From the NCBI GenBank assembly GCA_964106915.2, contig OZ066926.1: a DNA stretch of 64,000 nucleotides, one strand, 5' to 3'. A program made the position numbers and the translations under genes. The stretch is from Podarcis gaigeae. Taxonomy: Eukaryota. Under the pieces are notes generated by a model that saw only the letters and a program-made list of their open reading frames with translations, was not told where the DNA came from and ran no database searches. Shown piece by piece: positions 31,531 through 64,000 of the stretch; positions within the stretch are counted from its first letter, which is position 1; each line of letters opens with the position of its first letter.

Positions 31531-32534
31531 TTCTCTGGGCCGGCGCTATCCTCAGTCTGTCTGAGGCAGGTGCCTCAAGCTCCACTCTGGAAAGGGTGGC
31601 ATATTTGTATCTGGGTGCTGTGCCCACTTTCTGCCACCTTGCCTGTGGCGCTGTCGCTTCCTACTCCCCGGGACAGTTTCTTCAGGAGTGCAGGAAAGCT
31701 TTCCCTCCTTGCCCACCATTTTCCTTCTCCATTTCGTCCCCCTTGCTTTCCTGCTTTCTTTCTTCTCCCTCTGCTTCCCTACTCCATTTCACACCCTGCT
31801 TTCCTACTTGCCCTTTCCCCCCATTACAATAACCATCCTACAATACTAATCTATTTTCCCCCTGCTGCTCAAAGTTCACTCACTTTATTAAACGACAATT
31901 AATGTACCACCTCCTCTCTCTGAGTGTTTTATCAAATGACCTCTCAGCGATCCATGGACACTTTTAGACTTTTCCATGTAGGAGTCAGAGAATCATAGAC
32001 TTGTAGAGTTGGAAGGGACCACAATGATCCTCTAGTCCAACTCCCTGCAATGCAGGAAGCTTTCACCCAAAGCAGGGCTCAAAGCATGAGGCACAGAGGA
32101 GACTGTGGTGTCTTTATTATATTTGGTTTATTTACACATATATACAGCCTGAGCCTACTGTTCAAAGTATTACATTCCAAGAGGGTCCCTTGCTTCTCCC
32201 ATAGGTGCAGCAGCTTTGAATCCAAAACAGAAATCTGCTCTCCATTTACAGACTTTCAGCCCACATGATTCTTTGCCCCCGCTTCTTGCTAGTCACCACT
32301 AATAGACCCAAAGGATTTTTCCTCCTGTCCACATCAGGCGAACCTATTGGCCTTTGTTCATCTAACTCCCTCTGGCTCAGGGTGGGCTGCATCCAGAAGA
32401 TTCTTTGCCTGGTTGGTGGCTTTCTTGATTGTCATCACCCTGCCTTTGTTTGCTTATGACTTGACCATTATCAGGCTGCCTCATGAATAAGCTGTCTTGT
32501 GTTATTTCCAACACTTGCTAGATCCACGAATTTA

Positions 32535-32894
32535 AAGGTAAAGGTAAAGGTACCCCTGCCCGTACGGGCCAGTCTTGACAGACTCTGGGGTTGTGCGCCC
32601 ATCTCACTCAAGAGGCATGGGGCCAGCGCTGTCCGGAGACACTTCCGAGTCACGTGGCCAGCGTGACATCGCTGCTCTGGCGAGCCAGAGCCGCACACGG
32701 AAACGCTGTTTACCTTCCCGCTGGTAAGCGGTCCCTATTTATCTACTTGCACCCGGAGGTGCTTTCGAACTGCTAGGTTGGCAGGCGCTGGGACCGAGCA
32801 GCGGGAGCGCACCCCGCCGCAGGGATTCGAACCGCCGACCTTTCGATTGGCAAGTCCTAGGCGCTGAGGCTTTAACCCACAGCGCCACCTGCGT
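32535..32894 (-). mobile_element. Young full-length Sauria SINE
   Basis: TSD CCACGAATTTA; near-identical to 54956-55320. Confidence 0.92.
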
Positions 32895-33259
32895 CCACGA
32901 ATTTAGGGGGTTGCTTAAATGCTAACCCTTTTCGGAATCCAGAGATTTAGGGGAGTTCGACCGCCTCCCTCAGCAAACTCAAAGCCATACATTGTGCTGC
33001 ATCCATGGGCTTCCTTGAATTAGGTGCTTTGCTTACCATATACGAGAGAATTTTAGTGTGGAAGGCAGGCCTGGAAATCTACTGCAAAAGTCCTCTAGAA
33101 GAATGCTATACCAGGACTGCCAATTCTTATCTCTCTCTCTTATACACACACACACATGCACACACACACAGCCTTTCTCTTTGTCTTACTGAGTCGTTTT
33201 TAGGAAGTACTTATATACTACTACTACTACTACTAATAATAATCATAACAAATTTATAA

Positions 33260-41300: not shown

Positions 41301-44300
41301 TTGCATACATGAGTATAGCACCTCCCTCCCTAAGCCAGGCAGAAACTTCCTGGGCTTTGGGAAGGGGCACCAGGTCTCTGAAAGGATGCTGAAGCCCTGC
41401 TGCCTTCTTCCCAACGTCAGGCGAGCTTTGAGAAGGGGACGGGAAGGCTCTTGCACCCATCAGAGTAATGTGCCTCTCTCCCTAAGGCAGGCAGGAGCTT
41501 CCTGGGCTTTGAGAAGCAGGTGCCAGGAGAACACTTAGGAAACTAGCCTCTTCCCCCAAGTCCACTGACCACATGCCACTGTCCCTCTTCTGGTTCTGGG
41601 AGACCAGTGGGGAAGGGAGCTTGTCGCAGCAGGAAGGAGAGACTCCCCAGGCTTCTTCAGCAGCCTGCCTCACATCTGTCTCCTGGCCCACCTCCTCTCC
41701 AGCCTCCACTTCTGCCTCCGATTCTGGACTGCTCTCGGCCACAGCCTCTCCCTGCTCAGTAAAGTACCGTATTTTTCGCTTCATAAGACACACTTTTTTC
41801 CTCCTAAAAAGTAAGTGGAAATGTCTGTGTGTCTTATGGAGCGAATGCCTACGGATGGTGGGGGGATCCTGCTGCAGTCACGAGCTGAGCCGGGGAGGAG
41901 GGAGAGAAGGAGAGCCCGCTCACTTTAAAGGAGCAAAGTGGGAGAGGAAAGGAGCTGCTTACATGAGTGTAAGCGGCTCCTGTCCAGTTGGCTGCTTTAA
42001 AGCGAGCGTGCTCTCTTTCCCTCCTTCCTCCCCGGCTCACCTCACTGAAAGGTTCCTTCTCCACACACCCCACGCATGCTCCTTGTCCCTTCAGTGTTTT
42101 TCCTTCCCGCCCCACTTAAAACGTGGCTACAAAGCACGGATCCACATGGACCCTCAGGGTTTTTGCATTGGGTCACCCCAAATTCACCATCAGATCAGAT
42201 CACATAGTATGTCCATGGCTACAGCCTGCACCAAAAAAAATCACACACTCACTGTTGCCAGGGGCACAAAAACGTGGTTACAAAGCACTGATCCACATGG
42301 ATTCTCAGGATTTTTGCATTGGACTACCCCAAACTCAACGTCAAATCATATGTCTGCGGCCACAGCATGAACCACAAAAATCATACATCCACTGTTTCAT
42401 TCAGAATATTTTTTCTTCTTCTTTTCCTTCTCTAAAAACTAGGTGCGTCTTATGGTCCGGTGCGTCTTATGGAGCGAAAAATACGGTGCCTCAGTTTTTT
42501 AACGTCCCTGTTGACAAACATTTTGGTTTTCGAACTGCATAAACCCAAGTAAATGCTTCGGTTTTTGAATACGCCTTCAAAGTCAAACAGGAAACGCAGC
42601 TTCCACTGAGTGCAAGTTATTTGTTTCCCTATCTGCAAAGAGTACCTCAGTTTTTGAATGTTTCAGAACTCAAATGGTCTTCCGGAACAGATTACGTTCA
42701 AAAAGTGAGGTACTGCTGTATTTATTTTGTTGCAAGCTTTTTTACCTGCCATACCTGCGAGACACAAGAAATGAGGGAAGTGAACAGCTGCCACAGCCTC
42801 TGCTGGATCTGCTTCAATGTTGATCAAAGGCCCAGCGACAACCCAGTCCTCCATGTTCTGTTCGGCCAGGTGCTTGGACCATGAATCCAAGTGGTAGGTG
42901 ATGGTCACAGCTTCTTTCACCTCAAATATGACATCAGTATAAAAGCAAAGGAAGGATCCAGCCTCCGTGAAGCATAGTCTGAATGGCACAAAGGGAAAAT
43001 GGAAAGAGAAGTGGATTGAACACCAGCCGGACACCCTCTGCATCTTCCTGATGGGAAGAAATCCCCACTCCAAACCTGCCCCCCCCAAAAAAAAACTTCC
43101 AGGGAGGAAGACGAGGAAGACAGTATGGGGGGGGGTCTTTGCTCTCCTACTTTTAAGGCTTGCCAGGTTCTGGAAGATGGAGGGTCTGGAATGCTTTCTA
43201 ATGATAACGTGTTAGCTGTGCGTTGCTCTGGCTGTCCCATGATTTCCCAACTTTTCCTCTCATCTGCCTCTGAGCTGTGACCTCCCTCAAACCGCTGTTC
43301 TAAATCTATACTGTCTTCCTCTTCTTTCTCCCTGGATGGTTCGGGGGGGGGGGGAGACGGTCTCCGCCACTCCTCCTCTGCCCAGTCCCTGACACAGATG
43401 TAGTTTGGGAACGTTTTAGAGAGCACCACCACATGTGATGATTGTGAAACCTTCATGTACCAAATGTGCTCTGCTGAACACTTCTCTGAAACCTAAAAAG
43501 AAAATCAACTTTCCCTTAAAGGAGAAAGCTCTGCAAGATCTGAGAGAGACTTTGCTCACCTGTATCTTTCATGACTTGTTTCTGAGTCCAAAAACACCTC
43601 TGGTCTGATTGTTTCTGGAAGATCCTGTTACAAAATAATTTATCATTAATATGAGCGCCAGACCCCTTTTCCACCTGAAAGCAGGACATTTCTGTCTGTT
43701 TCTAACACCCATATGACCACACCAAGGAGCACTGCTTGAGGTCAAACCCACAAATCCAAATATAGCTACTTTGTTCTGCATTCATTTTGGCCATAGTAGT
43801 TCTCACTCAGGTCTTACAGTTTCTTATGAAAGGTTTTTTCTTTCACCTCAGCAGTATTCCCCCTGTTCCTTACAGAGAGCCCCTGCACAGGTTTCTCCCA
43901 ATTTACATTTAAGGATCTTTTTCTTTCTGTTTCATTTTTTAAAAAAATTAAAAATTATTGAGTTTATTTACAACATACACACACACTTGTCAAACTGGGC
44001 ATGAAAATAATAATACAGGTACAGAATCAAAAGAGAAACAAATAACAAATAGAAACAACAAAACAAAACAACACAAAACAAAACAAAAAAGTACAAATAA
44101 AACATGCTAACGTATGAAAACTTATACAAAACAAATAGTCATACACACACCGTATTTCAGTTCTTTTTTTCTTCCAATTGACTTCCTTCATCCTCAACAC
44201 GGTTCTTTTATTGTTTTTGGTAAACCATCTCCTTTTTAGTTCATTATTACCCCTTTTTCTTTCTGTTTTTAACTTAAGTGCCATAAACTATTTTGCAGAA

Positions 44301-51500: not shown

Positions 51501-52206
51501 GCGCTAAAGTAAAGCTACTTCCCAACATTCCAAGCAGATGGTTGTTTTTCCTTCCCTCCTTCGCGGCTGCAGCTCAGCGCTGGGCTGGCGCAACCAGGGG
51601 TGGAAGGATCTGGTGTCAGACTGAACGGCTGCGAAGGTCAGGATCCAGCAAAGACTTACCTTCCCTGACGGAGAAGAGGAGACTGTCCGCCTCGTACTTG
51701 CAGTCAATGGCCCTCAGCGCATCGGCCGCTACCTCTACTGCGTAACTTACGCCGTAGTAGCTGAGCAGCAGGTCTCGGAGGCGAGAGGCGCCTGCCTTGT
51801 GCATAGCCTCTTCGGGGATGCGGACGAAGCCCTCCTCGAGCGGGATCTCGGGCAGTTTGCGGCGGAACCTCCGCCTCTCGTCCCGACTCAACGTCCACAG
51901 CGAGAGTTGCAAGGCGCGAACGACAGGGAGCAGAGCGAGATAGAGATTCTCCCGCTCAGAGAGAGACTGCGGGGCGACCGACTGCTGCAATCGCCACGTG
52001 TTGGGGTCCCTGTCGTCGTCGTCGTCGTCGCTGCTGCTGCTACTCTGGAGCAAACCCTTGAGCCATAGGGACGTCTGCAACTTGAGGAGGGGATCCACCT
52101 CCCTCTCCCCCTTCTTCTCGGTGGACCGGCCGGCCTCTTTCGCCTTCAGCTTCTCGCCTCCTTCCTCCAGGGGCTCCTTCGCCCAGGGGTATTCGGGGGT
52201 CGCCAT
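35059..52206 (-). CDS. Gene C: acidic N-terminus-PYD-CARD-FIIND-PYD protein
   Basis: Exons 52206-51660, [unresolved phase 1->2 exon(s)], 47686-47391, 47291-47146, 43624-43560, 42978-42755, 40949-40690, 39838-39713, 39540-39399, 39284-39234, 36941-36872, 35344-35059. The chain from 47686 onward is phase-consistent; the link to exon 1 is inferred. Confidence 0.72.
36040..36305 (-). mobile_element. L2 LINE 3' fragment
   Basis: LRSSAEGLLAVPSL motif; adjacent (AAT)n tail. Confidence 0.7.
37350..37690 (-). mobile_element. L2 LINE 3' fragment
   Basis: LTFKALNGLGPVYL...RAFSIVGPALWNALP. Confidence 0.8.
37880..38722 (+). mobile_element. Rex1/Babar-like LINE 3' fragment
   Basis: KRAQQRLYFLRIL...FYHCAVESVL...RNSFYPNAI; tail gacaataaagattatcgtatcgtat. 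Confidence 0.75.
39399..39838 (-). CDS. Gene C UPA exons (39838-39713, 39540-39399)
   Basis: QRIDKPPWTLRPLTIG and EVEFQYLDADKMQQYVEL...ELIWEAHV. Confidence 0.9.
40690..40949 (-). CDS. Gene C FIIND autoproteolysis exon
   Basis: [29 protein letters not shown]|SPRG...[14 protein letters not shown]. Confidence 0.92.
41767..42486. mobile_element. Non-autonomous Tc1/mariner-type element
   Basis: TIR CCGTATTTTTCGCT...AGCGAAAAATACGG after a TA dinucleotide. Confidence 0.8.
42755..42978 (-). CDS. Gene C FIIND ZU5 exon
   Basis: EAGSFLCFYTDVIFEVKEAVTITYHLDSW...VAGPLINIEADPAEAVAAVHFPHFLCL. Confidence 0.92.
43935..45930 (-). mobile_element. Degraded L1-clade LINE with a nested Sauria SINE (~44745-45075)
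   Basis: LSLCGRISVVKMNVL, KTPWWISP and ARTLIAKNWK fragments. Confidence 0.82.
47391..47686 (-). CDS. Gene C CARD-like exon
   Basis: KGRKELLEIIEKDLEFFLHELYYGFIITQKEY...KLLNMIQERGEATCCWFLEQV; homologous to 9697-9408. Confidence 0.78.
50040..50900 (+). mobile_element. Old degraded non-LTR RT fragment
   Basis: NGVEQGCLLAPLLFNI and HFNYLG-like remnants. Confidence 0.5.
51660..52206 (-). CDS. Gene C exon 1: low-complexity N-terminus plus divergent PYD
   Basis: ggcgccATGg Kozak context in a CpG island. LQLSLWTLSRDERRRFRRKLPEIPLEEGFVRIP...LRDLLLSYYGVSYAVEVAADALRAIDC; donor G|gtaagt. Confidence 0.82.
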
Positions 52207-52916
52207 GGCGCCCCTGCCCAGAGGAAAGTCGCGCCCCGCGGCAGAGCCGGAGAGGCGGCAGCGTCTGAAGGGGGAAGAAGGAAGCGGACGACGCCCTCGG
52301 GGAAGCGGCTCCTCCGCGGGCGCTTGGCGGGGGCGGAGACTCCCGAGGTTTCCTCCCGTCGAGCAGAGAATCAGCGCCGGACCTGGGAAGGCGAGAACGT
52401 GGGAAGGGTCTTCCCGGCGCTCCCAGAAGACTGGCTGGCTGGCAGGCAGGGGGGGAAACGGCAAAAGGAAAACACGCCGCTTCCTTGGCAGGGGGGGAAA
52501 CGGCAAAAGGAAAACACGCCGCTTCCTTCCAAGTTTGGCTCAACTTCTAATCGTCTATCAGCCAGGAGCATCTCCCTCCCTCCTCTCCCCTTGTTGCCAA
52601 AACGAGCACATCCGCCCTTGCTGAACTGCAGGACCCAGAAAGGCAAAAACGAAACCGCCAGGTGAGCCAAGAAAGAGGGTGAAGCGCGCCTCTTTCTCAG
52701 CGCGGAAGGGAAGCCCTTGGCCGCCGCCTCTTCCTCTGAAAACCCAAAGTGGCTGCCCACCTTCTGGCTGCGGGATCCCGAAGACCGTCGGCCGGTGCAG
52801 GACTGGAGCAACCAGGGGGGCCTAGATGAAGTAAAACAAGAGAAATGCTTAACTGAACAATCACGTCGGTTCTGCCCCCCTAACAAAGGTCCACCCCCCA
52901 AAAAAATATAATAATC

Positions 52917-53140
52917 CTGGCAACGCCCACGCGCCGGTGCCTGAAGGACCCCCTCGAGAACTTGGAGAAAGACGAGCTGCGGAAGTTCAGGGGGAAACTG
53001 AAGGCAATTCCCATCGATGGATGGCGCTGAAGGAGCGGGTGCCACAAACGCACATGGGCCTGCTCCGGCTTCGCTACTACACGGAGGAAGACGCCCCACA
53101 CCTGACATCCCAGATCTTCAATGGGATTAACTGCAGCATA
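52917..53140 (+). pseudogene. Degenerate PYD, divergent to gene C
   Basis: RRCLKDPLENLEKDELRKFRGKLKAIPIDGWR* followed in another frame by LLRLRYYTEEDAPHLTSQIFNGINC. Confidence 0.65.
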
Positions 53141-53268
53141 GGAGCCAGGGCCCTTTGCACCCCCTAAAATATTTGAGAGGGCCAGATCCACCTCTGAGGT
53201 TGATGGTCATTGCCATTCAAAGGATGTGATCTTGTGATCGATTATGTGGGGCAAGGCTTACCTAAACC

Positions 53269-54955: not shown

Positions 54956-55320
54956 GGGGACGCAGGTGGCGCTGTGGGTTAAAGCCTCAGCGCCTAGGAC
55001 TTGCCGATCGAAAGGTCGGCGGTTCGAATCCCTGTGGCGGGGTGCGCTCCCGCTGCTCGGTCCCAGCACCTGCCAACCTAGCAGTTCGAAAGCACCTCCG
55101 GGTGCAAGTAGATAAATAGGGACCGCTTACCAGCGGGAAGGTAAACGGCGTTTCCGTGTGCGGCTCTGGCTCGCCAGAGCAGCGATGTCACGCTGGCCAC
55201 ATGACTCGGAAGTGTCTCCAGACAGCGCTGGACCCTGGCCTCTTAAGTGAGATGGGCGCACAACCCCAGAGTCTGTCAAGACTGGCCCGCACGGGCAGGG
55301 GTACCTTTACCTTTACCTTT
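54956..55320 (+). mobile_element. Young Sauria SINE nested in a CR1 fragment (~54635-55750)
   Basis: 13-bp TSD AAGAGAGGACATG; (ACCTTT)n tail. Confidence 0.92.
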
Positions 55321-57624
55321 AAGAGAGGACATGATAGAAGTTTATAACATTATTCAGGGTGTGAGCAAAGTGGACAGAGAAATGTTTTTATCCCTTTCTT
55401 GGAAAGCTAGAACCAGTGAGCATCCAATGAGTCTGGATGTTGGAAGACGCAGGTCAGATAGAAGTCCTTCACACAGCGCAGAGTTAGGCCATGGAACTCA
55501 CTTCCACAGGAGACAGTGCTGGTCACTAACTTGGGTGGTTTCAAAAAAGTTACTGGACAACTTCACGGAAGACACGGCTCCTTGCCATGATGGCTGTGCT
55601 CTCCCTCCTCAGTCAGAGGCAGAAATGTTTCTGAATAGCAGTTGCTGGAAGCCACAGAAAGGGAGCGAGTTTTGCACTTGCAGGTTTCCCACAGCCATCT
55701 GGTTGGCAGAGGTGAGAACAGGATGCTGGCCTGATCCAGCAGGTTCTTCTTAAGTTCTAAGGCACAGGTTTCAGAATGAACTACTTCCTGGAGGAAGGAA
55801 AAAAGGGATCACTGAGTACATTTGTGAAGCTATTAAATACTGTCAGGAAATGAAGGGAAAAGAAGCCCCCAAATTTCTAAAGTGTGGGAAACCTTTGGCC
55901 CTCCAAATGTTGCTGAACTACAACTCCCATCATCCTGGGCTCCATTGGCCAAGCTGGCTGGGGCTGATGGGAGTTGGTTCAACAACTTCTGGAGCTTCAA
56001 CGGTTACCTGCTCTTGCTCTAGAGAATGATCTTCAACTTTGGGCCCCCAGATGTTGTTGGTCTACAAGTTCCATCACCCCCAGCTAGCTTAACCTGATCT
56101 CAAAAAGGGTGGGAGTTGAAGTTCAGCAACATCAGGGGACCCAAAGTTGAAAAACAGCTCTAGAATGTTCCAAGTGGTGGCCTATGCAGGTAATCCTAAA
56201 GTATGACGGTGGGTGCAGGCAAGGGGTTCAGGAAGTTACAAAGGGCAGGTTGCAGGTTTTACCTAAAGTGAGAAACACATCCCTAAATTTGTGAGAAGCT
56301 TCACTGATGTACCTATTCCCAGGCAGAGCAAGCTGTCCCCTCATCATGTTGTAGCAAAACTCCCCAAACTGGGGAACATGAGACCATGTGAATCAGGGGT
56401 AGTCAATATGGTGCCCTCCAGAAGATGCTGGAGTACAACTCCCATCTTGCGTGACCATGTGAAGTGCTCTTCTGTAAGCCTCAAATCTGAGGGACACAAG
56501 ACAAAGGGCTGATCAACACCATTTAAGTGCATAAATTCCTCCAAAGAATCCTGGGAACAGTATTTTATTTAGAGCATGGTGTATTTCAGCCCTGTGAAGG
56601 GCTAAACTACAGTTCCCAGGATGCTTTGGGGGAAGCCACATGCTCTAAATGTGCATTAAAAATGTGGTGTGGATGCACAACTAGATCCATGTCTTCATAT
56701 CCCCAACAACATTGCCGCAGAGAAAACAGCTTTTGTATGTACAGCAGTGGTAGCCAACACAGTGCCCTAAATCAGTGTTTCCCAACCTTTTTTGGGCAAA
56801 GGCACACTTGTTTCATGAAAAAAATCTCGAGGCACACCACCATTAGAAAATGTTTAAAAAATTAACTCTGTGCCTATATTGACTATATATAAAGTAACTC
56901 TCTTTAATAGGAATCAAATAAACACAAATAAAGTATTTTATAATTACTTTATTATGAAATAGTAAGTAAACAGAAATATGAAAAATTATAAAATACTTTA
57001 TTCAGTGAACCTGTGAGGGCCCGCCCTTTGCGGCAGCCGATTGGCTGCCGCCGTGGGCAGTGAATATTAATGATGTATCATTTTTGTGCTTCATGCTGTG
57101 GCCACAGACATGTGATCTGATGGTGAATTTGGGGTGACCCAATGCAAAAATCCTGAGAATCCCTGTGGATCCATGTTTTGTAACCACGTTTTTGCACCAC
57201 TGCAGCCCCAGGCAACAGTGGGTGCGTGATTTTTGGAGGGCAGGCTGTAGCCATGGACATGCTATGTGATCTGTTGGTGAATTTGGGGTGACCCAATGCA
57301 AAGATCCTGAGGATCCATGTGGATCCATGCTTTTAAACCACATTTTAAGTGGGGAGGGAAGGAAAAACACAGAACGGACAAGGAGCACGAGAGGGGTGTG
57401 CAGAGAAGCAGCTGGCTAAGAATGCAGGAGAGGGGTATAACGGGGAGGGAGGAAAGGAAGGCAAAAGTTTTCCCTCACCTACTCACCCAAGCCAGCCAGC
57501 TCGCACGCTCTCTCTCTCTCTCCCCCTCCTGCCTGCTTGCCTGGAGGGGAGGGGCTTTCCCTGCTCTTTGTTCCGTTTGAGCAAGCACAGCAAGGAAACA
57601 GAGGCGGGTGGGCAGTAAGACCCT

Positions 57625-57927
57625 GAGGCAAGTGCGGCTTGTGCTTGCTCAGCAGCTTCTTCACGGTGCTCCGCGGAACGGTGTTCTTCATCCCGCCGGC
57701 GGCGGCTCCCTCTCTTTCCTCTCAAGCAGAGCGGCCTTCCTGCTCCAGCCGCGCCTGCGCCTGAGGAGTTTCGAATCTGCCGCCGCGCGCAGGGTGACGT
57801 CACGGCCGCCGCCGGGCCAATCCGCCTGCTCGGCCCCGCCTCCCTTCTTCTCGCCTCCCTCACGAGAGGAAGCGCCTCCCTCGCGCACGGCGGATGCAGC
57901 CTGAGCAGAGTCCCCTCTCGCTTAGAG
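57625..57927 (-). pseudogene. CENPW: Captured CENPW promoter and 5' exon fragment inside a hAT element
   Basis: MKNTVPRSTVKKLLSKHKPHL from ATG 57691 resembles the sauropsid CENP-W N-terminus (recalled chicken MRRTVPRGTLRKIIKKHKPHL). Homology stops abruptly; upstream sequence is CpG-rich. Confidence 0.7.
57770..57840 (-). promoter_or_regulatory. Cell-cycle-type promoter motifs: GC box, CCAAT, CRE, CHR-like
   Basis: CCCCGCC 57834-57840, CCAAT 57817-57821, TGACGTCA 57795-57802, TTCGAA 57770-57775, all upstream of ATG 57691. Confidence 0.55.
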
Positions 57928-58622
57928 CAGTGTTTCCCAAGCGGCACACGAGGCAACGTCTCGCGGCACACTAGTGTGCCGCGGAACACCGGTTGGGAAA
58001 CACTGCCCTAAATAAACTGCAGGACTACAACTCCCATCATGCCTGATCTTTAGCAGTGCTGGCTGGGACTGATGGGAGCAGCAGTCCAACACCTCTAGGG
58101 GATCCATATTCTAGCAAGGCAGCACCTACACTCTGGAACGGCTTGCCCATTGACAGCTGTCTTCTTTGTACTATGCTCAGTGCCTGCTAATAAAAAATTT
58201 GTTTCGGCAAGCCTAAACAGATACGTAAAGCTGACACGTCTTTTAAGAGGTGATTTTATTTTAAAAATTATATTTTAGCTGCTGATATTATTAACATTTT
58301 GAATTTTTTTAAGCTCAACTCATTTTAAACCTCTGACTTTTATTTAAAAATAATATTTTTTGTTTTATACAAATAGCTTAGTGATTTGTTTCTTATAACT
58401 GAGCATTACACACATTCTGTTAAATAAAAAAGATAAGCCAACTACTGAAGGGCACCAGGTTGGTTATCCCTGATGTAAGGTTTCTATCCTCTCATCCCCA
58501 CTGCCCCCATGAAGAGATTATCAATCCACCACTCTGCATTTGCCGGGGGGGGGGGCTGGGGCAGGTGGCACTCCATTTGCCTTCCACCCTAGCAAGTTCT
58601 GTGAGCTGGAATTCCTTCTTTC

Positions 58623-61258
58623 TTACTCAGTCTCCGAGAGGGAGATGAGCCTCTCTGCCTCAGGCCTGCAGTTGATGGCTCTGAGCACCTCAGCCGCCAC
58701 CTGCACAGCATCTTCCATGTAGTAACCAAGCAGCAGCATGCTCAGGTCCATGACATCCGCCTTCATTAGCTTCCCTCGAGGGATGTTGCCATAGCCACCC
58801 CAATCGCTGAGATTGAGCTTGAACCTCTTGAGTTCATCCTCATCCAGATTCTCCAGGACGGACAGCAGACGTTCTCTGATGGTCCTCACCTTCACTCTGC
58901 ACTGGCGCCTCCAACAGCAGGGAAAAGCAGACACAAAACAAGAGAAGCTCAGCAAAGGGATATGAGAAGGAACTACATCAGGAGGTGCTGTCACCTTCCA
59001 TGACTGTGACTGGCACTGAGGGAGGGGAAAGAGGGGTGGCCTGAAGTTGCTTTGAAGCTTAGAGAGCCATCTTTGATCAGTGATTCAAGGTCCAAGCAAC
59101 ACAATGCTGGGATTGGAGCTAAACCACCTCCTGCTCTGAGGGGAGCCTTGCATGCAACCGATATTTAGAGAGATACCCAATTTAGCTTCTGTTGACCTTA
59201 CACATTTGCATGTTGCTGCTCCTCCAGCAACAGCAGTGCAGCCAATGCCTAAACAGCACCCCCCAACATCTGCTGTCTGCCTGTGGCAGCTGCTGCATTG
59301 TCCCTAATAGCAGGACTGGCTTTGTGTGAGGAAAGGGAATGTCAAGCCCTACCTGCTTTCCATACCATGCCCTGAGTCAGTGCCACTTGATGCAGCATGA
59401 GACCGAGTGCAGGAAGAAGCACCTGGAAAAGAGAAATTTAGTGGATAGGTAGGCAACAAGGAGGGATTATGGGAAAATGATAATTATGGGACATGAACCT
59501 GTGCCACACTTTCGGGTCTCAAATTATAGCAGCGCATTGTGCAACATCAAAATTTTCTAGCCCCACTTCTCACCTTCCATTCTACATTATAGCAGTGTGG
59601 GGTGCCAGGGGGCATAAGCCCCACTTGCACAATTTTTACAGGGACCAAACCAGAGACACAGTGATCCCTGTTCCACCCTGCCTGCCGTGGGGGTCTCCCA
59701 TGATCCTTCCTTTCTTCTGTGGGAAGAGAGTGGCCATTATGCCAGCTTTTAAATCCATGAAAACTTTACCCACAAGGCCTCTACCCTGGGAAGAAAGCCA
59801 CTTTTTAGGACTCTGTGCAATAACCCTTACTGTGTACTTATATTGCCACTTCATAACAAACGTTCTCTAGCTGGCTCACAAGGGGGGGGGGGGGGGAAGC
59901 AACAAGAACACACATTAACATGCAGTTAGAAAACCAGTTAAACCCATTAAAAACAATATTTTAACAACTGACGCTAAGTTGAAAACTGAGAAGCCTAGGC
60001 TGTAACACATACCAGGAGAAATCACGCCCCCATTCAGGGATCTCTGTCTGACCCTGCCTGCTGCCGGAGGTTTCTGTGCTTCCATTGGGAGGAAGGTGAG
60101 ATTTAAGTATGAGGAAATAATTAAAACCTGCTGACCTTGTGCTGCATGTAGAAGAGGAGAAGTCATCTCAGGGGACTTTAACTCTTCTGAAACAGAATAG
60201 GAAAGAGGCAGTCAAAAGAAGGAATGTGACTGGCATGTCCTTTATCACCCTGCCTCCCAAATTATGGTCCAACCTACTGATCTTCCTCCATTCAAACTCA
60301 CCTTGTGTCACTTGGGCCACCCAGATGAGTTTATTCTTGCGCTTGTCCATCACACAGAAGTTGAATGTGTCTTGCATTTGCTCAGCAGACAGTTCCACGT
60401 ACTGCTGCAGCTTGTCAGAATCCAGGTATTGAAACTTCACTTCCTGTGGGGAAACATTAAACCAGGGGTTGGGGGGGAAAATTAGCCATGGACTGGTCCA
60501 CTGTCCCTCAGAACTTGTGGCAGGCTGGAAAAGTGACACCGGGGGGGGGGGGGAGCTGGAAGAAGATGCGAGGGGGGCAAGTGGTCCTCCTCCCCACCCC
60601 CAGCTTACCTTCCCTGGGGCTACTACCACTGCTGCTTCTCGTGGGTAGGCAGAGTGAGCTTGTCCACTCCACTCTCTGGCTCACAGGAGCACCAGTGCAG
60701 CGGCAGCGGAGGGAAGATAAGCAGTGCAAAAGGGCTGGCTCTGGAGAGGGGCTGCTTAAAATGTCAGTCAGCCAGTTCAGTCTAGCCCCCTTCCTTCTCT
60801 AGGCAGGGTGGGGAGAAGCCAGGAGGAAGGAGGGAGGAGGGGGTGCCGCGGTATGTGTGATAGAGAAGGGCGGGGATGGAATGGCGCTGTGGGGGGATGG
60901 CACAGTCCAAACGAACAGAATCCCCACGCTGATCCACGGACAGTCCATGGGCTGGATCTTGAAGGCAATTGGGCCTGATCCATCCCGTGGAACTTAGTTT
61001 GCCGACCCCTGCATTAAACCTTATGTGGGATTCAAATTAAGGGGTGATGAGGGATCTGGTGGAGTCCCCTCCATTCTCATACTTCACAGCCTTGGCTGTG
61101 CCCTAGCAAAGCTTTTCATCATCTTTGTGCCTCACCTTGGGGCAAACTTTGGCACCATTTGTCTCCACAACGAAGCGACAGCCAATTCTCAGAGGGCTCT
61201 GAGTGCAGGGGGGCTTCTCTATTTTCTGTGAATGACTACGTTCATGATCATCAACCGC
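58623..61258 (-). CDS. Gene D 3' part: UPA exons, linkers and C-terminal PYD (5' exons outside the window)
   Basis: Exons 61258-61136, 60443-60302, 60186-60136, 59422-59353, 58896-58623. Same sizes (123/142/51/70 nt) and phases as gene A, open frame. PYD reads IRERLLSVLENLDEDELKRFKLNL. Confidence 0.85.
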
Positions 61259-61689: not shown

Positions 61690-64000
61690 GGGTGGACTTC
61701 CGGTTGAGAGCGACCCCATCGCAAGCAGGGATTTTTCCGAGTGGAGAATCCCGGGTTTTTCGGAGGATTTAGGAGTGTCACAGGGCGCAGTGGCCCCCAG
61801 AAGCAGTGTCTGGAGGGTGTCCAGACACTCAGGTTCCCACGGAAGCCAAAATGCAGACCACCCGGCCACCAGGTAACTCCCAAAAGGAGCGAAGAGTGCT
61901 GCGGGGAGGGTGAGAAGGCTGAAGGGAAGCCACAGCTACCTCCGGAAAACGAAGCCCCGAGCTTGCAGGGGGAGTGCTTAATTCTCGATTATAAGAAATT
62001 CGGAGCTAAATTGCTTAAAAAGAAGTGGATTTCAACATCAGGAAGGAGCCGGATGAGGAATATATAAATACGAGATTAGCTGTCATCTGCAATCAGTTTG
62101 AACGCATTATACAAGCAAAGCCGGAGAACAGAGAAGTGAGTTGCCGCTAGCGGCTATTGTTTCTTTTCCCCTTTTGACTCGCTAAAAACTAACTTTTTAG
62201 AAGACATAAAGTATCTTAAGAAGAATCCAAGTTAAAAGGGGGAACAGAGGGTTTAAATTTGGAACTTTGAAGGTCCTCTTTGCAACTGTGAGGGAAAAAG
62301 ACAGAGAAATCGATCCCAGTTTCACTTTTTAAAAAACTGCGCAACGGAAGAAGAGCTTCCGACTCCATTGCTTGTCCTTTGTTTGCCTTTTAGTAACTAC
62401 GGAAGGTTTTTTGCTTTCTAATTGGGGTTTTTTTCTGCACACATCTTTTGAGTTACACATCTACTGGTCCTTGGAGGGCACAAGGAGAAGGGGACGACAG
62501 AGGATGAGATGGTTGGACAGTGTTCTCGAAGCTACAAACATGAGTCTGACCAAACTGCGGGAGGCAGTGGAAGACAGGAGTGCCTGGCGTGCTCTGGTCC
62601 ATGGGGGTCACGAAGAGTCGGACATGACTAAACGACTAAAGGAGAAATATTTTAAAGGAGAAATATTAAGAATGTTTGCAGAAATTAGGCAAAGTGAAAA
62701 GAATTTAGAGGACAAACTAGAACAAGTGGATATGAGAATTGAACAGGTAGATACGAGAATTGGGGAAATGGACCAAAAAATTGACAAGACAGTAAAAGAA
62801 TTGAAAGGTCAAATTAAAGAAGTATCTAAAAGAACACAATCTTTGGAAGAAGGAATGAAGAAGACAAGAGCTGAAATGAAGGAAGTGAAGCGTGAGGAAG
62901 AGAAAATCAAAGTGGGTTTATCAGAAGTTAATAAGTCACAGGAGGAGATATGGGATGTAATTGGTATGAATGAACTGAGGCAGAGGGAAGTGAACCTCAG
63001 GCTGAGAGCTGTGCCTGAGGTTCAAGGTGAAAATATCAGAGAGAAATTAGTAATAGAGATAGCGCAATGGCTGGAACTACAAAAGGAAGAGGTCAAGAGA
63101 ACTGTACAGAATGCATTCAGGATGAGAGTAAGAACAACCAAATCAAGGAAAGTTCCTGGAGATTGTTTGATCACTTTTAAGGACAGAGATATGAGAAATT
63201 TGATACTTCAAAAAAATAGAGAAAAAAGACTGAATATCGATGGGAATTATATAATTATTTTTAAAGATATTCCAGTCAGATTGTTGAAACGAAGCGATCC
63301 ATATAAACCATTGGTCCAAATTCTCAAGAGGAACAAGATTGAATTCAAATGGGAATTCCCACAGGGGATTTCCTTTGTTTACAAAAGCAAGAAACACAGA
63401 CTTACCAGTCCAGAGGAAACAGGCAAATTCCAGAGATGATACAAGGAACTAACAGCAGAGGAGGAGGAAGAAGGAGAAGCAGTGGGAGGAGTAGGTCCTC
63501 TAGGGGGGAAGTATCCGGAAGAAAAGGAGAAGAATGTGGAAAAGCCGGACGAGGAACAAGAAGAGGAAGAACAAGAAGAGGATAGATTATAAAGAACAAA
63601 TAAATTAAATCAATTTTAATAAGGCGTTCACCATGGCGTTGAAATTATGGAATTGGAATATCAATGGAATGAACGATAGGAAAAAACGAAACAAAATTGA
63701 ACAATATTTAAAAAAGAAAAACTTGGATATTATCTGTCTTCAAGAGACACATGTGGCAAGGAAACACAGAAAATTTTTGATCAATAACAGATTAGGAAAT
63801 GAATTCATATCTTCTGACAAAGGGAAAAAGAGAGGGGTTGTATTATATGTAAGGAAAAAAATTGAAGCTCAGCAAATCTTCAAGGATGAAGAAGGAAGAA
63901 TAACTGCAATTCAGGTCAAATGGCAAGGCGAAATATTAATAATTGTCGGGATCTATGAACCTAATGGAAACAAGACTGATTTCTATAAAAATTTGGAAGA
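61690..64000 (+). mobile_element. L1-clade LINE 5' part in a gene D intron: 5'UTR, coiled-coil ORF1 and ORF2 endonuclease start
   Basis: ORF1 coiled coil, NLRLRAVPE and KWEFP. ORF2 from ATG 63633 reads MALKLWNWNINGMN...DIICLQETH (APE endonuclease). Confidence 0.9.
62470..62640 (+). mobile_element. RTE-BovB 3' end inserted in the L1
   Basis: EGTRRRGRQRMRWLDSV...gtcacgaagagtcggacatgactaaacgactaaa. Confidence 0.85.

Follow-up and report, generated by a model that had tools for sequence, protein, structure and literature searches.

The stretch of Podarcis gaigeae DNA analysed here (64,000 nucleotides of contig OZ066926.1, assembly GCA_964106915.2, called the window below) contains, at 56773-58005, a 1,233 bp transposon of the hAT type which has incorporated the 5' region of the CENPW gene. 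We consider with high confidence that the CENPW 5' region has genuinely been captured and transposed here, and recently so; a multicopy Pack-type hAT element carrying it is, in our judgement, probably the best overall explanation of the data. A Pack-type capture had been proposed in a first-pass annotation of the same sequence. This proposal is supported by the junctions of the captured piece, by its identity, by contigs of the native gene and by an empty insertion site in a relative.

The element is delimited by two terminal inverted repeats (TIRs) of 15 bp, found by repeat search at 56773-56787 (plus strand) and 57991-58005, the arms of which are 100% complementary. They are flanked by identical 8-mers, CCCTAAAT, at 56765-56772 and 58006-58013, with TA at positions 4-5. 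This target site duplication (TSD), to which no strand is assigned, is present as a single copy at the empty site described below. The length, the perfect TIRs and the 8 bp TSD are those read by the first-pass annotation. The arm length and the size are within the limits given for hAT elements (TIRs of 5-27 bp, less than 4 kb; PMC3517528), and the 8-mers, identical here and single at the empty site, correspond to the 8 bp duplication of hAT insertion. The target consensus of the Buster family is nnnTAnnn (PMC3517528), and both 8-mers adjoining a left terminus of the element fit it (2 of 2, these being only two sites, with a background of 4.9% of the 8-mers of the window). The element is likely to be a non-coding, non-autonomous hAT of a Buster-type family. 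Its insertion has cut in two an older small repeat on the plus strand (56737-58080, with halves at about 56737-56772 and 58014-58080). The rejoined flanks align with 56386-56468 at 73.5% over 83 nt across the junction (E 3e-9), with a score of 94 vs a maximum of 50.5 in shuffled sequences.

The region 56300-58700 was compared with sequence data of relatives. Part of the element occurs in 20 of the 24 listed runs, and no run listed as containing it has RNA as its recorded kind. Four runs were compared: from organism A, X1, whose kind is not recorded; from organism F, X13 (presumed DNA), X23 (raw RNA) and X15 (presumed RNA). Of the 14 listed runs of DNA or unknown kind that contain part of the element, two are thus covered. 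The shares of the element found in the runs (0.53-0.83 in seven organisms) do not demonstrate the composite, since organism F reaches 0.53 and is nevertheless without it. Record 12 of X13 links 56611-56762 to 58004-58196 and, as 56763-56772 is identical to 58004-58013, this contig represents the site without the element and with a single TSD. The empty site that was to be sought in a related lizard is therefore found in organism F. In X1, record 7 (589 bp) contains 58004-58483 and 109 letters left over. Its depth, 53.4, is found again at 56697-56723, and that of the flank contig which follows is 52.8. From the start base of record 7 and these matching depths, we infer that organism A is also empty at this site, on both chromosomes. 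Between flanks and window, 4 of 923 positions are different in X1 and 27 of 868 in organism F.

The captured segment is read on the minus strand. The ATG at 57691 opens codons 1-21 of CENP-W (57629-57691), and the 21-codon peptide is identical at 21/21 residues to the CENP-W of Podarcis muralis, P. raffonei and P. lilfordi and at 18/21 to that of Lacerta agilis. A PDB search with this peptide retrieved three CENP-W chains (E 2e-4), presumably of the chicken type; in Pfam, a 30-aa piece gave a weak CENP-W match (E 0.14) and the 21-aa piece gave no match. The frame leaves CENP-W after codon 21, continues into the element and stops after 70 codons. About 235 bp are carried above the start codon. 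They make up a predicted 5' untranslated region (UTR) and proximal promoter at 57692-57927 (minus strand), within a CpG island; this assignment is based on motifs, and the match to native sequence covers only 57628-57914. For the segment 57628-57927, the observed/expected CpG ratio is 1.0 and the GC content 0.68, in a window with a CpG ratio of 0.31. The motifs are a GC box at 57840, ATTGG (CCAAT) at 57821, the cAMP response element (CRE) TGACGTCA at 57802 and TTCGAA, of CHR type (cell cycle genes homology region), at 57775. The four were never found jointly in 2000 dinucleotide shuffles (0/2000), a result mainly due to the CRE: the single rates were 57% for the GC box, 8.7% for CCAAT, 0% for the CRE and 6.1% for the CHR. 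The CpG-rich segment with these motifs and a CENP-W-like start, as first described, is therefore confirmed by the motifs and by the peptide.

The native gene was recognized in organism F. Record 13 of X13 (665 bp) has a depth of 26.7 with flanks at 23.3-25.3 and matches 57628-57914 with nine differences in 287. Beyond the match, the 337 letters upstream and the 41 letters seen on the other side are all unlike the element. This contig is the single-copy native CENPW gene of organism F. The Pack-TIR definition also asks for a parent without the transposon within 100 bp; in organism F the 337 letters extend beyond this distance and the 41 letters fall short of it, and in the carrier lineage the route proposed below would predict a former insertion there. 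In organism F, a unique parent at 278/287 identity is available (at least 90% being required of a Pack-TIR, as TIR transposons with a captured gene fragment are called), and both ends of one TIR element surround about 300 bp of non-transposon sequence, within the 100-5000 bp of the definition. Record 20 of X15, which matches 57628-57756, extends by 279 further letters, as would a native CENPW mRNA. From its end at 57756, the distance is about 65 nt down to the ATG and 15-20 nt up to TTCGAA. The CHR-type motif (57775-57770) therefore sits some 15-20 bp above the mRNA-like end; near start sites, TTCGAA works as a CHR variant (PMC4176359), and CENPW occupies one table row in a p53-DREAM review (PMC5729532). 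Judged by sequence, the captured motif set and its position fit a CHR-type cell-cycle promoter. About 160 bp of the captured DNA match native sequence above the mRNA-like contig end at 57756. A retrocopy origin is thereby excluded and the capture was made at the DNA level.

A native CENPW locus at this place, or an assembly chimera, would also give a peptide perfectly identical to CENP-W. This explanation has a practically negligible probability. The native contigs diverge from the element at both junctions, the same junctions occur in independent contigs, and the TSD and the empty site are exact. The genes surrounding the site are PYD/CARD/FIIND genes and the frame departs from CENP-W after codon 21. 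Furthermore, a tblastn search with four proteins detected no other CENP-W exon in the 64-kb window (next best E 0.25 among the matches listed). The native locus is accordingly excluded: the remaining CENPW exons, which in the first-pass annotation were to identify it, are not among the matches listed for the window, and the native contigs diverge from the element.

The number of copies was approached by contig depth. In X1, record 5 (57601-57802) has a depth of 1725.6, or 32.5 times the flank, and record 6 (57804-57941) a depth of 2151.9, or 40.5 times the flank; neither shows any difference from the window. In X13, the CENPW segment has 1.1 times the flank depth. Since X1 holds both chimeric junctions and this site is empty there, the composite should be present at other sites. 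These results suggest that the element likely belongs to a young Pack-TIR family of roughly 30-40 near-identical copies in a close relative, a number given by the depth ratio, and the depth of 32-41 times the flank in organism A is in agreement with the further copies expected at the outset. An alternative is a single-copy gap-filling event at the present site, the X1 depth being produced by a tandem array, library bias or summed contigs. Vertebrate Pack-TIRs are mostly single-copy (PMC8277862) and contig depth is no copy number. Nevertheless, X1 has both junctions with 0 differences while the site is empty there, and the GC-rich segment has no excess depth in X13; we regard this alternative as very improbable.

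Several points weigh against the multicopy family. The 30-40 copies are a rough ratio from one run, X1, in which contig depth is not a copy number and a tandem array elsewhere would yield the same figure. Records 5 and 6 extend 27 and 14 letters past the junctions, vs the 31 letters of the rule used for bridging. Of the two pieces of X1 record 7, one is missing from the list, so that the empty site of organism A is a probable one. Neither a second TSD nor a full-length second copy was seen among the compared data sets. Finally, no transposase partner was found by pattern scans, which covered metagenome, viral and prokaryote contigs only. In these scans, the left-end pattern gave 0 metagenome loci and the right-end pattern gave one (L001), with 0 viral and 0 prokaryote loci. 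At 534-579 of L001, 41 of 46 terminal bases (89%) are common with the right end of the element. This locus has a flanking 8-mer without central TA, no left end and three frames of at least 80 aa, among which no transposase frame is evident; as a relative of the element it is uninformative.

The age of the capture can be estimated from organism F. The captured piece differs from its native gene at 9/287 positions and the flanks at 27/868. Both values are 3.1%, which would fit a capture after or near the split from organism F. The left end of the element (56773-57071, plus strand) is that of a high-copy, non-autonomous hAT family. It is AT-rich and has GGCACAC subterminal motifs, the CpG ratio of the left part of the element being 0.34, and in X1 and X13 the summed depth of its family is thousands of times that of the flank. 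It is followed by an internal fragment, without TIRs, of a mariner-like miniature inverted-repeat transposable element (MITE) at 57072-57460 on the minus strand. The fragment starts at 57072. Aligned over 343 columns with the opposite strand of 42056-42389, within the interior of the MITE at 41767-42486, it shows 84% identity; the match is weak beyond 57408 and extends to about 57460. The mariner-like piece announced at about 57075-57420 is thus recovered. The inverted orientation noted with it has no meaning, because the two insertions, that of the element and that of the 41767-42486 MITE, are independent. The latter MITE has 23 bp TIRs with one mismatch and is flanked on its left by TA and on its right by TG. 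It may be Tc2/Kanga-like. In all four data sets (4/4), the loose ends before 57072 read as the own continuation of the MITE.

From 57461 to 57630 (plus strand), further interior of the repeat family is present, and the family reads continue past 57630 with other sequence (264 X23 reads, agreement 0.94). The summed depths at 56929 and 57442 are 289,000 and 309,000 in X1, and 47,000 and 27,000 in X13. Because these depths are alike in X1 and of the same order in X13, they suggest a parent family with copies in the thousands, in which the mariner piece was already included; this is a rough estimate, as no listed contig spans 57072. As a separate observation, 22 X13 contigs depart from the left end at 56845 into a GC-rich stretch with a CRE-like motif, perhaps another subfamily with another captured, or native, CpG-rich interior.

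The two junctions of the captured piece give indications about the capture route. On the left, native CENPW matching begins at 57628 and the reads of the repeat family end matching at 57630. Contig and read ends therefore define a 3-bp overlap, GCA, at 57628-57630 (no strand), common to the repeat interior and the CENPW piece. On the right, the left TIR is repeated in its first 13 bp at 57928-57940 (plus strand), which is the sole other such match in the window, so that the internal second left terminus reported at 57928 is real as a sequence feature. Family contigs match only from 57941/57942, diverging before it. The right end proper of the family, 65 bp at 57941-58005 (plus strand), was delimited by these contigs and by repeat search. 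An X1 loose end before 57942 terminates in TTTCCCA, which is also in the TIR (17 contigs, agreement 0.76). Immediately before the inner terminus is the 8-mer GCTTAGAG (57920-57927, no strand), which has TA at positions 4-5 and is likely an earlier hAT target site. Because this 8-mer holds the only TA of the 300 bp 57628-57927 and is of Buster type like the outer TSD, we infer that the inner terminus is the true left end of a second copy that was inserted there. A perfect 12-bp inverted repeat (57578-57589 / 57640-57651) is also found astride the left junction, with one arm in the repeat interior and the other in CENPW exon 1. It was not used as evidence.

In the proposed route, a family copy would first have landed at the TA-centred 8-mer GCTTAGAG, some 235 bp upstream of the start codon of CENPW. 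A repair strand copying a longer family member would then have left it at the 3-bp overlap 57628-57630, crossed CENPW exon 1 and its promoter into the left TIR of the inserted copy, and rejoined the right end of the family at the 7-bp TTTCCCA overlap. The product would have had outer left and right ends and could have been multiplied by ordinary cut-and-paste with transposase from elsewhere. We lean, with little more than even confidence, towards such a capture by a second hAT insertion at CENPW and template switching. Some observations speak against it. In organism F, the native match stops at 57914, so that 57915-57927, which include the 8-mer, are beyond it and, being 13 bp out of reach, the 8-mer is not established as native CENPW. 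The native CENPW of organism F has no element end at the position of the 8-mer, and a 3-bp overlap alone is weak evidence.

The same multicopy Pack element could have been formed in another order. CENPW would first have been taken by simple template switching, through FoSTeST or gap filling, or have been caught between co-moving neighbour copies; a 78-bp mini-element would later have entered the captured promoter, its right end becoming the working end, or deletions would have trimmed the composite. A nested insertion likewise predicts a TA-centred 8-mer adjoining the inner TIR, and it agrees with the 337 other letters, without element end, above the native CENPW of organism F. The model published for multicopy Pack-TIRs is FoSTeST (PMC8277862) and, in maize, paired hAT ends can mobilise the DNA between them (PMC3260210). 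This order requires more steps, however, and no longer CENPW-bearing intermediate is among the listed pieces, a list that leaves out 25,283 others. We regard it as a serious possibility which falls short of an even chance.

The captured promoter is located about 5.5 kb upstream of the neighbouring gene C and points toward it, as first stated: the CENPW ATG and the gene C ATG are on the same strand, 5,485 bp apart. It could thus be imagined as an alternative, cell-cycle-regulated promoter of gene C, with splicing from a donor-like GTGAGT at 57486 to exon 2. The donor-like site and the first intron of gene C are both of phase 1, so the reading frame would hold, a coincidence expected by chance in one case out of three. 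Many Pack-TIRs form chimeric RNAs (PMC8277862), and the captured TTCGAA is of a functional CHR variant (PMC4176359) above a gene included in the p53-DREAM table (PMC5729532). Against this, five minus-strand AATAAA signals precede gene C, two inside the left end of the element (57002 and 56953) and three beyond it, and gene C has its own CpG island, with 6 of 7 relatives aligning from residue 1 at 52206. Because of the poly(A) signals inside the element and of this CpG island, a promoter donation to gene C is unlikely; in our estimation its chance is slight. The site is empty in organism F and likely in a very close relative too, which indicates that gene C does not need the element. Moreover, the promoter follows a poly(A) signal of gene D, transcribed in the same direction, at a distance of about 500 bp and may be dampened there by read-through, and human Pack-TIR cases mostly appear to be driven by host promoters (PMC8277862).

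The RNA of organism F (X23, of which about 12 in 100 of the run were read) has depths of 0.25, 0 and 0 over the CENPW bins; as this organism is without the composite, its RNA is uninformative on the moved promoter. If the promoter fires, a short CENPW-transposon chimeric RNA would be expected, ending at an AATAAA in the left end of the element. An in-frame splice from 57486 to gene C is possible but has no support, and little effect is predicted at this site.

Gene D could be concerned as well. The element is between genes C and D and follows the distal poly(A) signal of the latter by about 250 bp, in the same direction, a position that the first-pass annotation had not mentioned. The last exon of gene D (58240-58910, minus strand) comprises a PYRIN domain near 58620-58910, the stop and a 3' UTR with AATAAA at 58344 and 58260. 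Record 21 of X15 (depth 14) covers 58098-58523, past both signals, which suggests that gene D RNA extends to about 85 bp from the insertion site in organism F. From these positions, an effect on the 3' end of gene D would be as plausible as one on gene C. Paralogues within the window offered no empty site, the 3' similarity of gene D to them ending at about 58197-58253.

Genes C and D belong to a minus-strand tandem cluster (1-61300) of at least four PYRIN/CARD/FIIND genes. By their domains, these are CARD8- or NLRP1-like and differ in their ends, FIIND-PYD in three and FIIND-CARD in one. The first coding exon of gene C, a PYD-CARD-FIIND-PYD gene, occupies 51660-52206 (minus strand) in a CpG island at 51600-53100. 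At its start, 52206, six of the seven lacertid relatives align from residue 1 and the seventh from residue 22. In a 1,282-aa model of P. lilfordi (P0006), a gene D-like terminal PYRIN exon (58910-58638) is followed by a gene C-like CARD exon (47532-47146). The insertion site would be intronic if this read-through is real, but the model may also be an artefact of gene prediction in which two genes were fused. The CpG island of gene C further contains, at 52919-53170 (plus strand) and head to head with this gene, a PYRIN-like start with an in-frame stop, and a tandem duplication of about 40 bp is located above the gene C start codon at 52440-52520. Elsewhere in the window, a 365-bp repeat in two opposite copies (54958-55322 and 32532-32896, 97% identical) is likely a young short interspersed element. 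The plus-strand frame at 62333-64000, a coiled coil followed by an endonuclease-like start with weak Pfam matches, is likely the 5' part of a long interspersed element.

Multicopy capture of gene fragments by TIR transposons is common in plants, and four families were counted in 100 animal genomes (PMC8277862). The lizard case is apparently young, seems to exceed the described frog cases about tenfold in size by depth, and is apparently present or absent between close relatives, so that both the capture route and any regulatory effect are testable in Podarcis. The inner terminus with its target-like 8-mer may record a capture step that was only modelled in published cases. The spread of a promoter and first exon by a TIR transposon would be a putative and, in vertebrates, rarely seen route for moving a gene switch. 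An active promoter would allow a direct test of DNA transposons rewiring vertebrate cell-cycle transcription; a silent one would still leave a clean record of hAT gene capture. A broader hypothesis, which we put forward tentatively and think doubtful, is that in one wall-lizard lineage a mobile hAT family has dispersed tens of intact cell-cycle core promoters with start codon and splice donor, polymorphic between close relatives, that some of them drive proliferation-linked or germline transcription of their neighbours, and that the capture used a second element end at the donor gene. If true, the scattered active copies would constitute a natural, segregating promoter-trap experiment, and the second-end route would be one that the published animal Pack-TIR survey filters out.

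That survey, whose pipeline discards parents linked to transposable elements, counts 208 hAT elements among its 370 Pack-TIRs from 100 animal genomes, and four multicopy families (Tan et al. 2021, PMC8277862). For the lizard genome anoCar2, its table gives 0 Pack-TIRs and also 0 hAT. The statement that such capture is rarely reported in vertebrates is therefore right in part: it agrees with only four multicopy families and none in the lizard genome, and does not hold against 370 Pack-TIRs with 208 hAT. Gene capture has been called rare in hAT elements (PMC3260210); PMC9910405 served as background only. The term cenpw had 0 matches in 12 supplement files of PMC8277862, and no description of a CENPW-carrying lizard transposon was found in the open literature, repeat databases and subscription papers being outside the search.

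The element resembles Pack-hAT-N8_XT of Xenopus tropicalis, also a non-autonomous hAT with about 300 bp of a GC-rich gene 5' end (there 291 bp of the CAPSL 5' UTR), a short junction overlap and absence from the orthologous sites of relatives (PMC8277862). Unlike it, with three copies, and another frog case, with five transposition events (PMC8277862), the lizard element would have roughly 30-40 copies by depth, and unlike Pack-hAT-N8_XT its piece has upstream motifs, a start codon, 21 codons and an inner terminus with a target-like 8-mer. Ssk-FB4 of Drosophila melanogaster is likewise young, polymorphic and multicopy and carries the upstream region of its gene; it differs in being MULE-like, with a nearly whole, expressed gene and four copies (PMC8277862), whereas the lizard exon is truncated. 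Maize Ds2, the compound Ds-l4 and the Ac/Ds macrotransposons share the hAT type, gene-derived filler DNA and several ends per element, but belong to the plant Ac family (PMC3260210). The 8-bp TSD with central TA and the short TIR are those of the Buster family (PMC3517528); the lizard element has no transposase. By our comparison, the closest functional parallel is given by the bat Helitrons: in HelibatN3-NUBPL, a host promoter, 5' UTR and first exon are spread by a vertebrate DNA transposon (PMC4224331). Those are rolling-circle elements with up to thousands of copies (PMC4224331), unlike the lizard element with its TIRs, TSD and cut-and-paste movement. Pack-TIR capture as a kind is thus known; the present variant stands out by its depth-based scale, by its occurrence in a squamate and by an inner end that bears a target signature.

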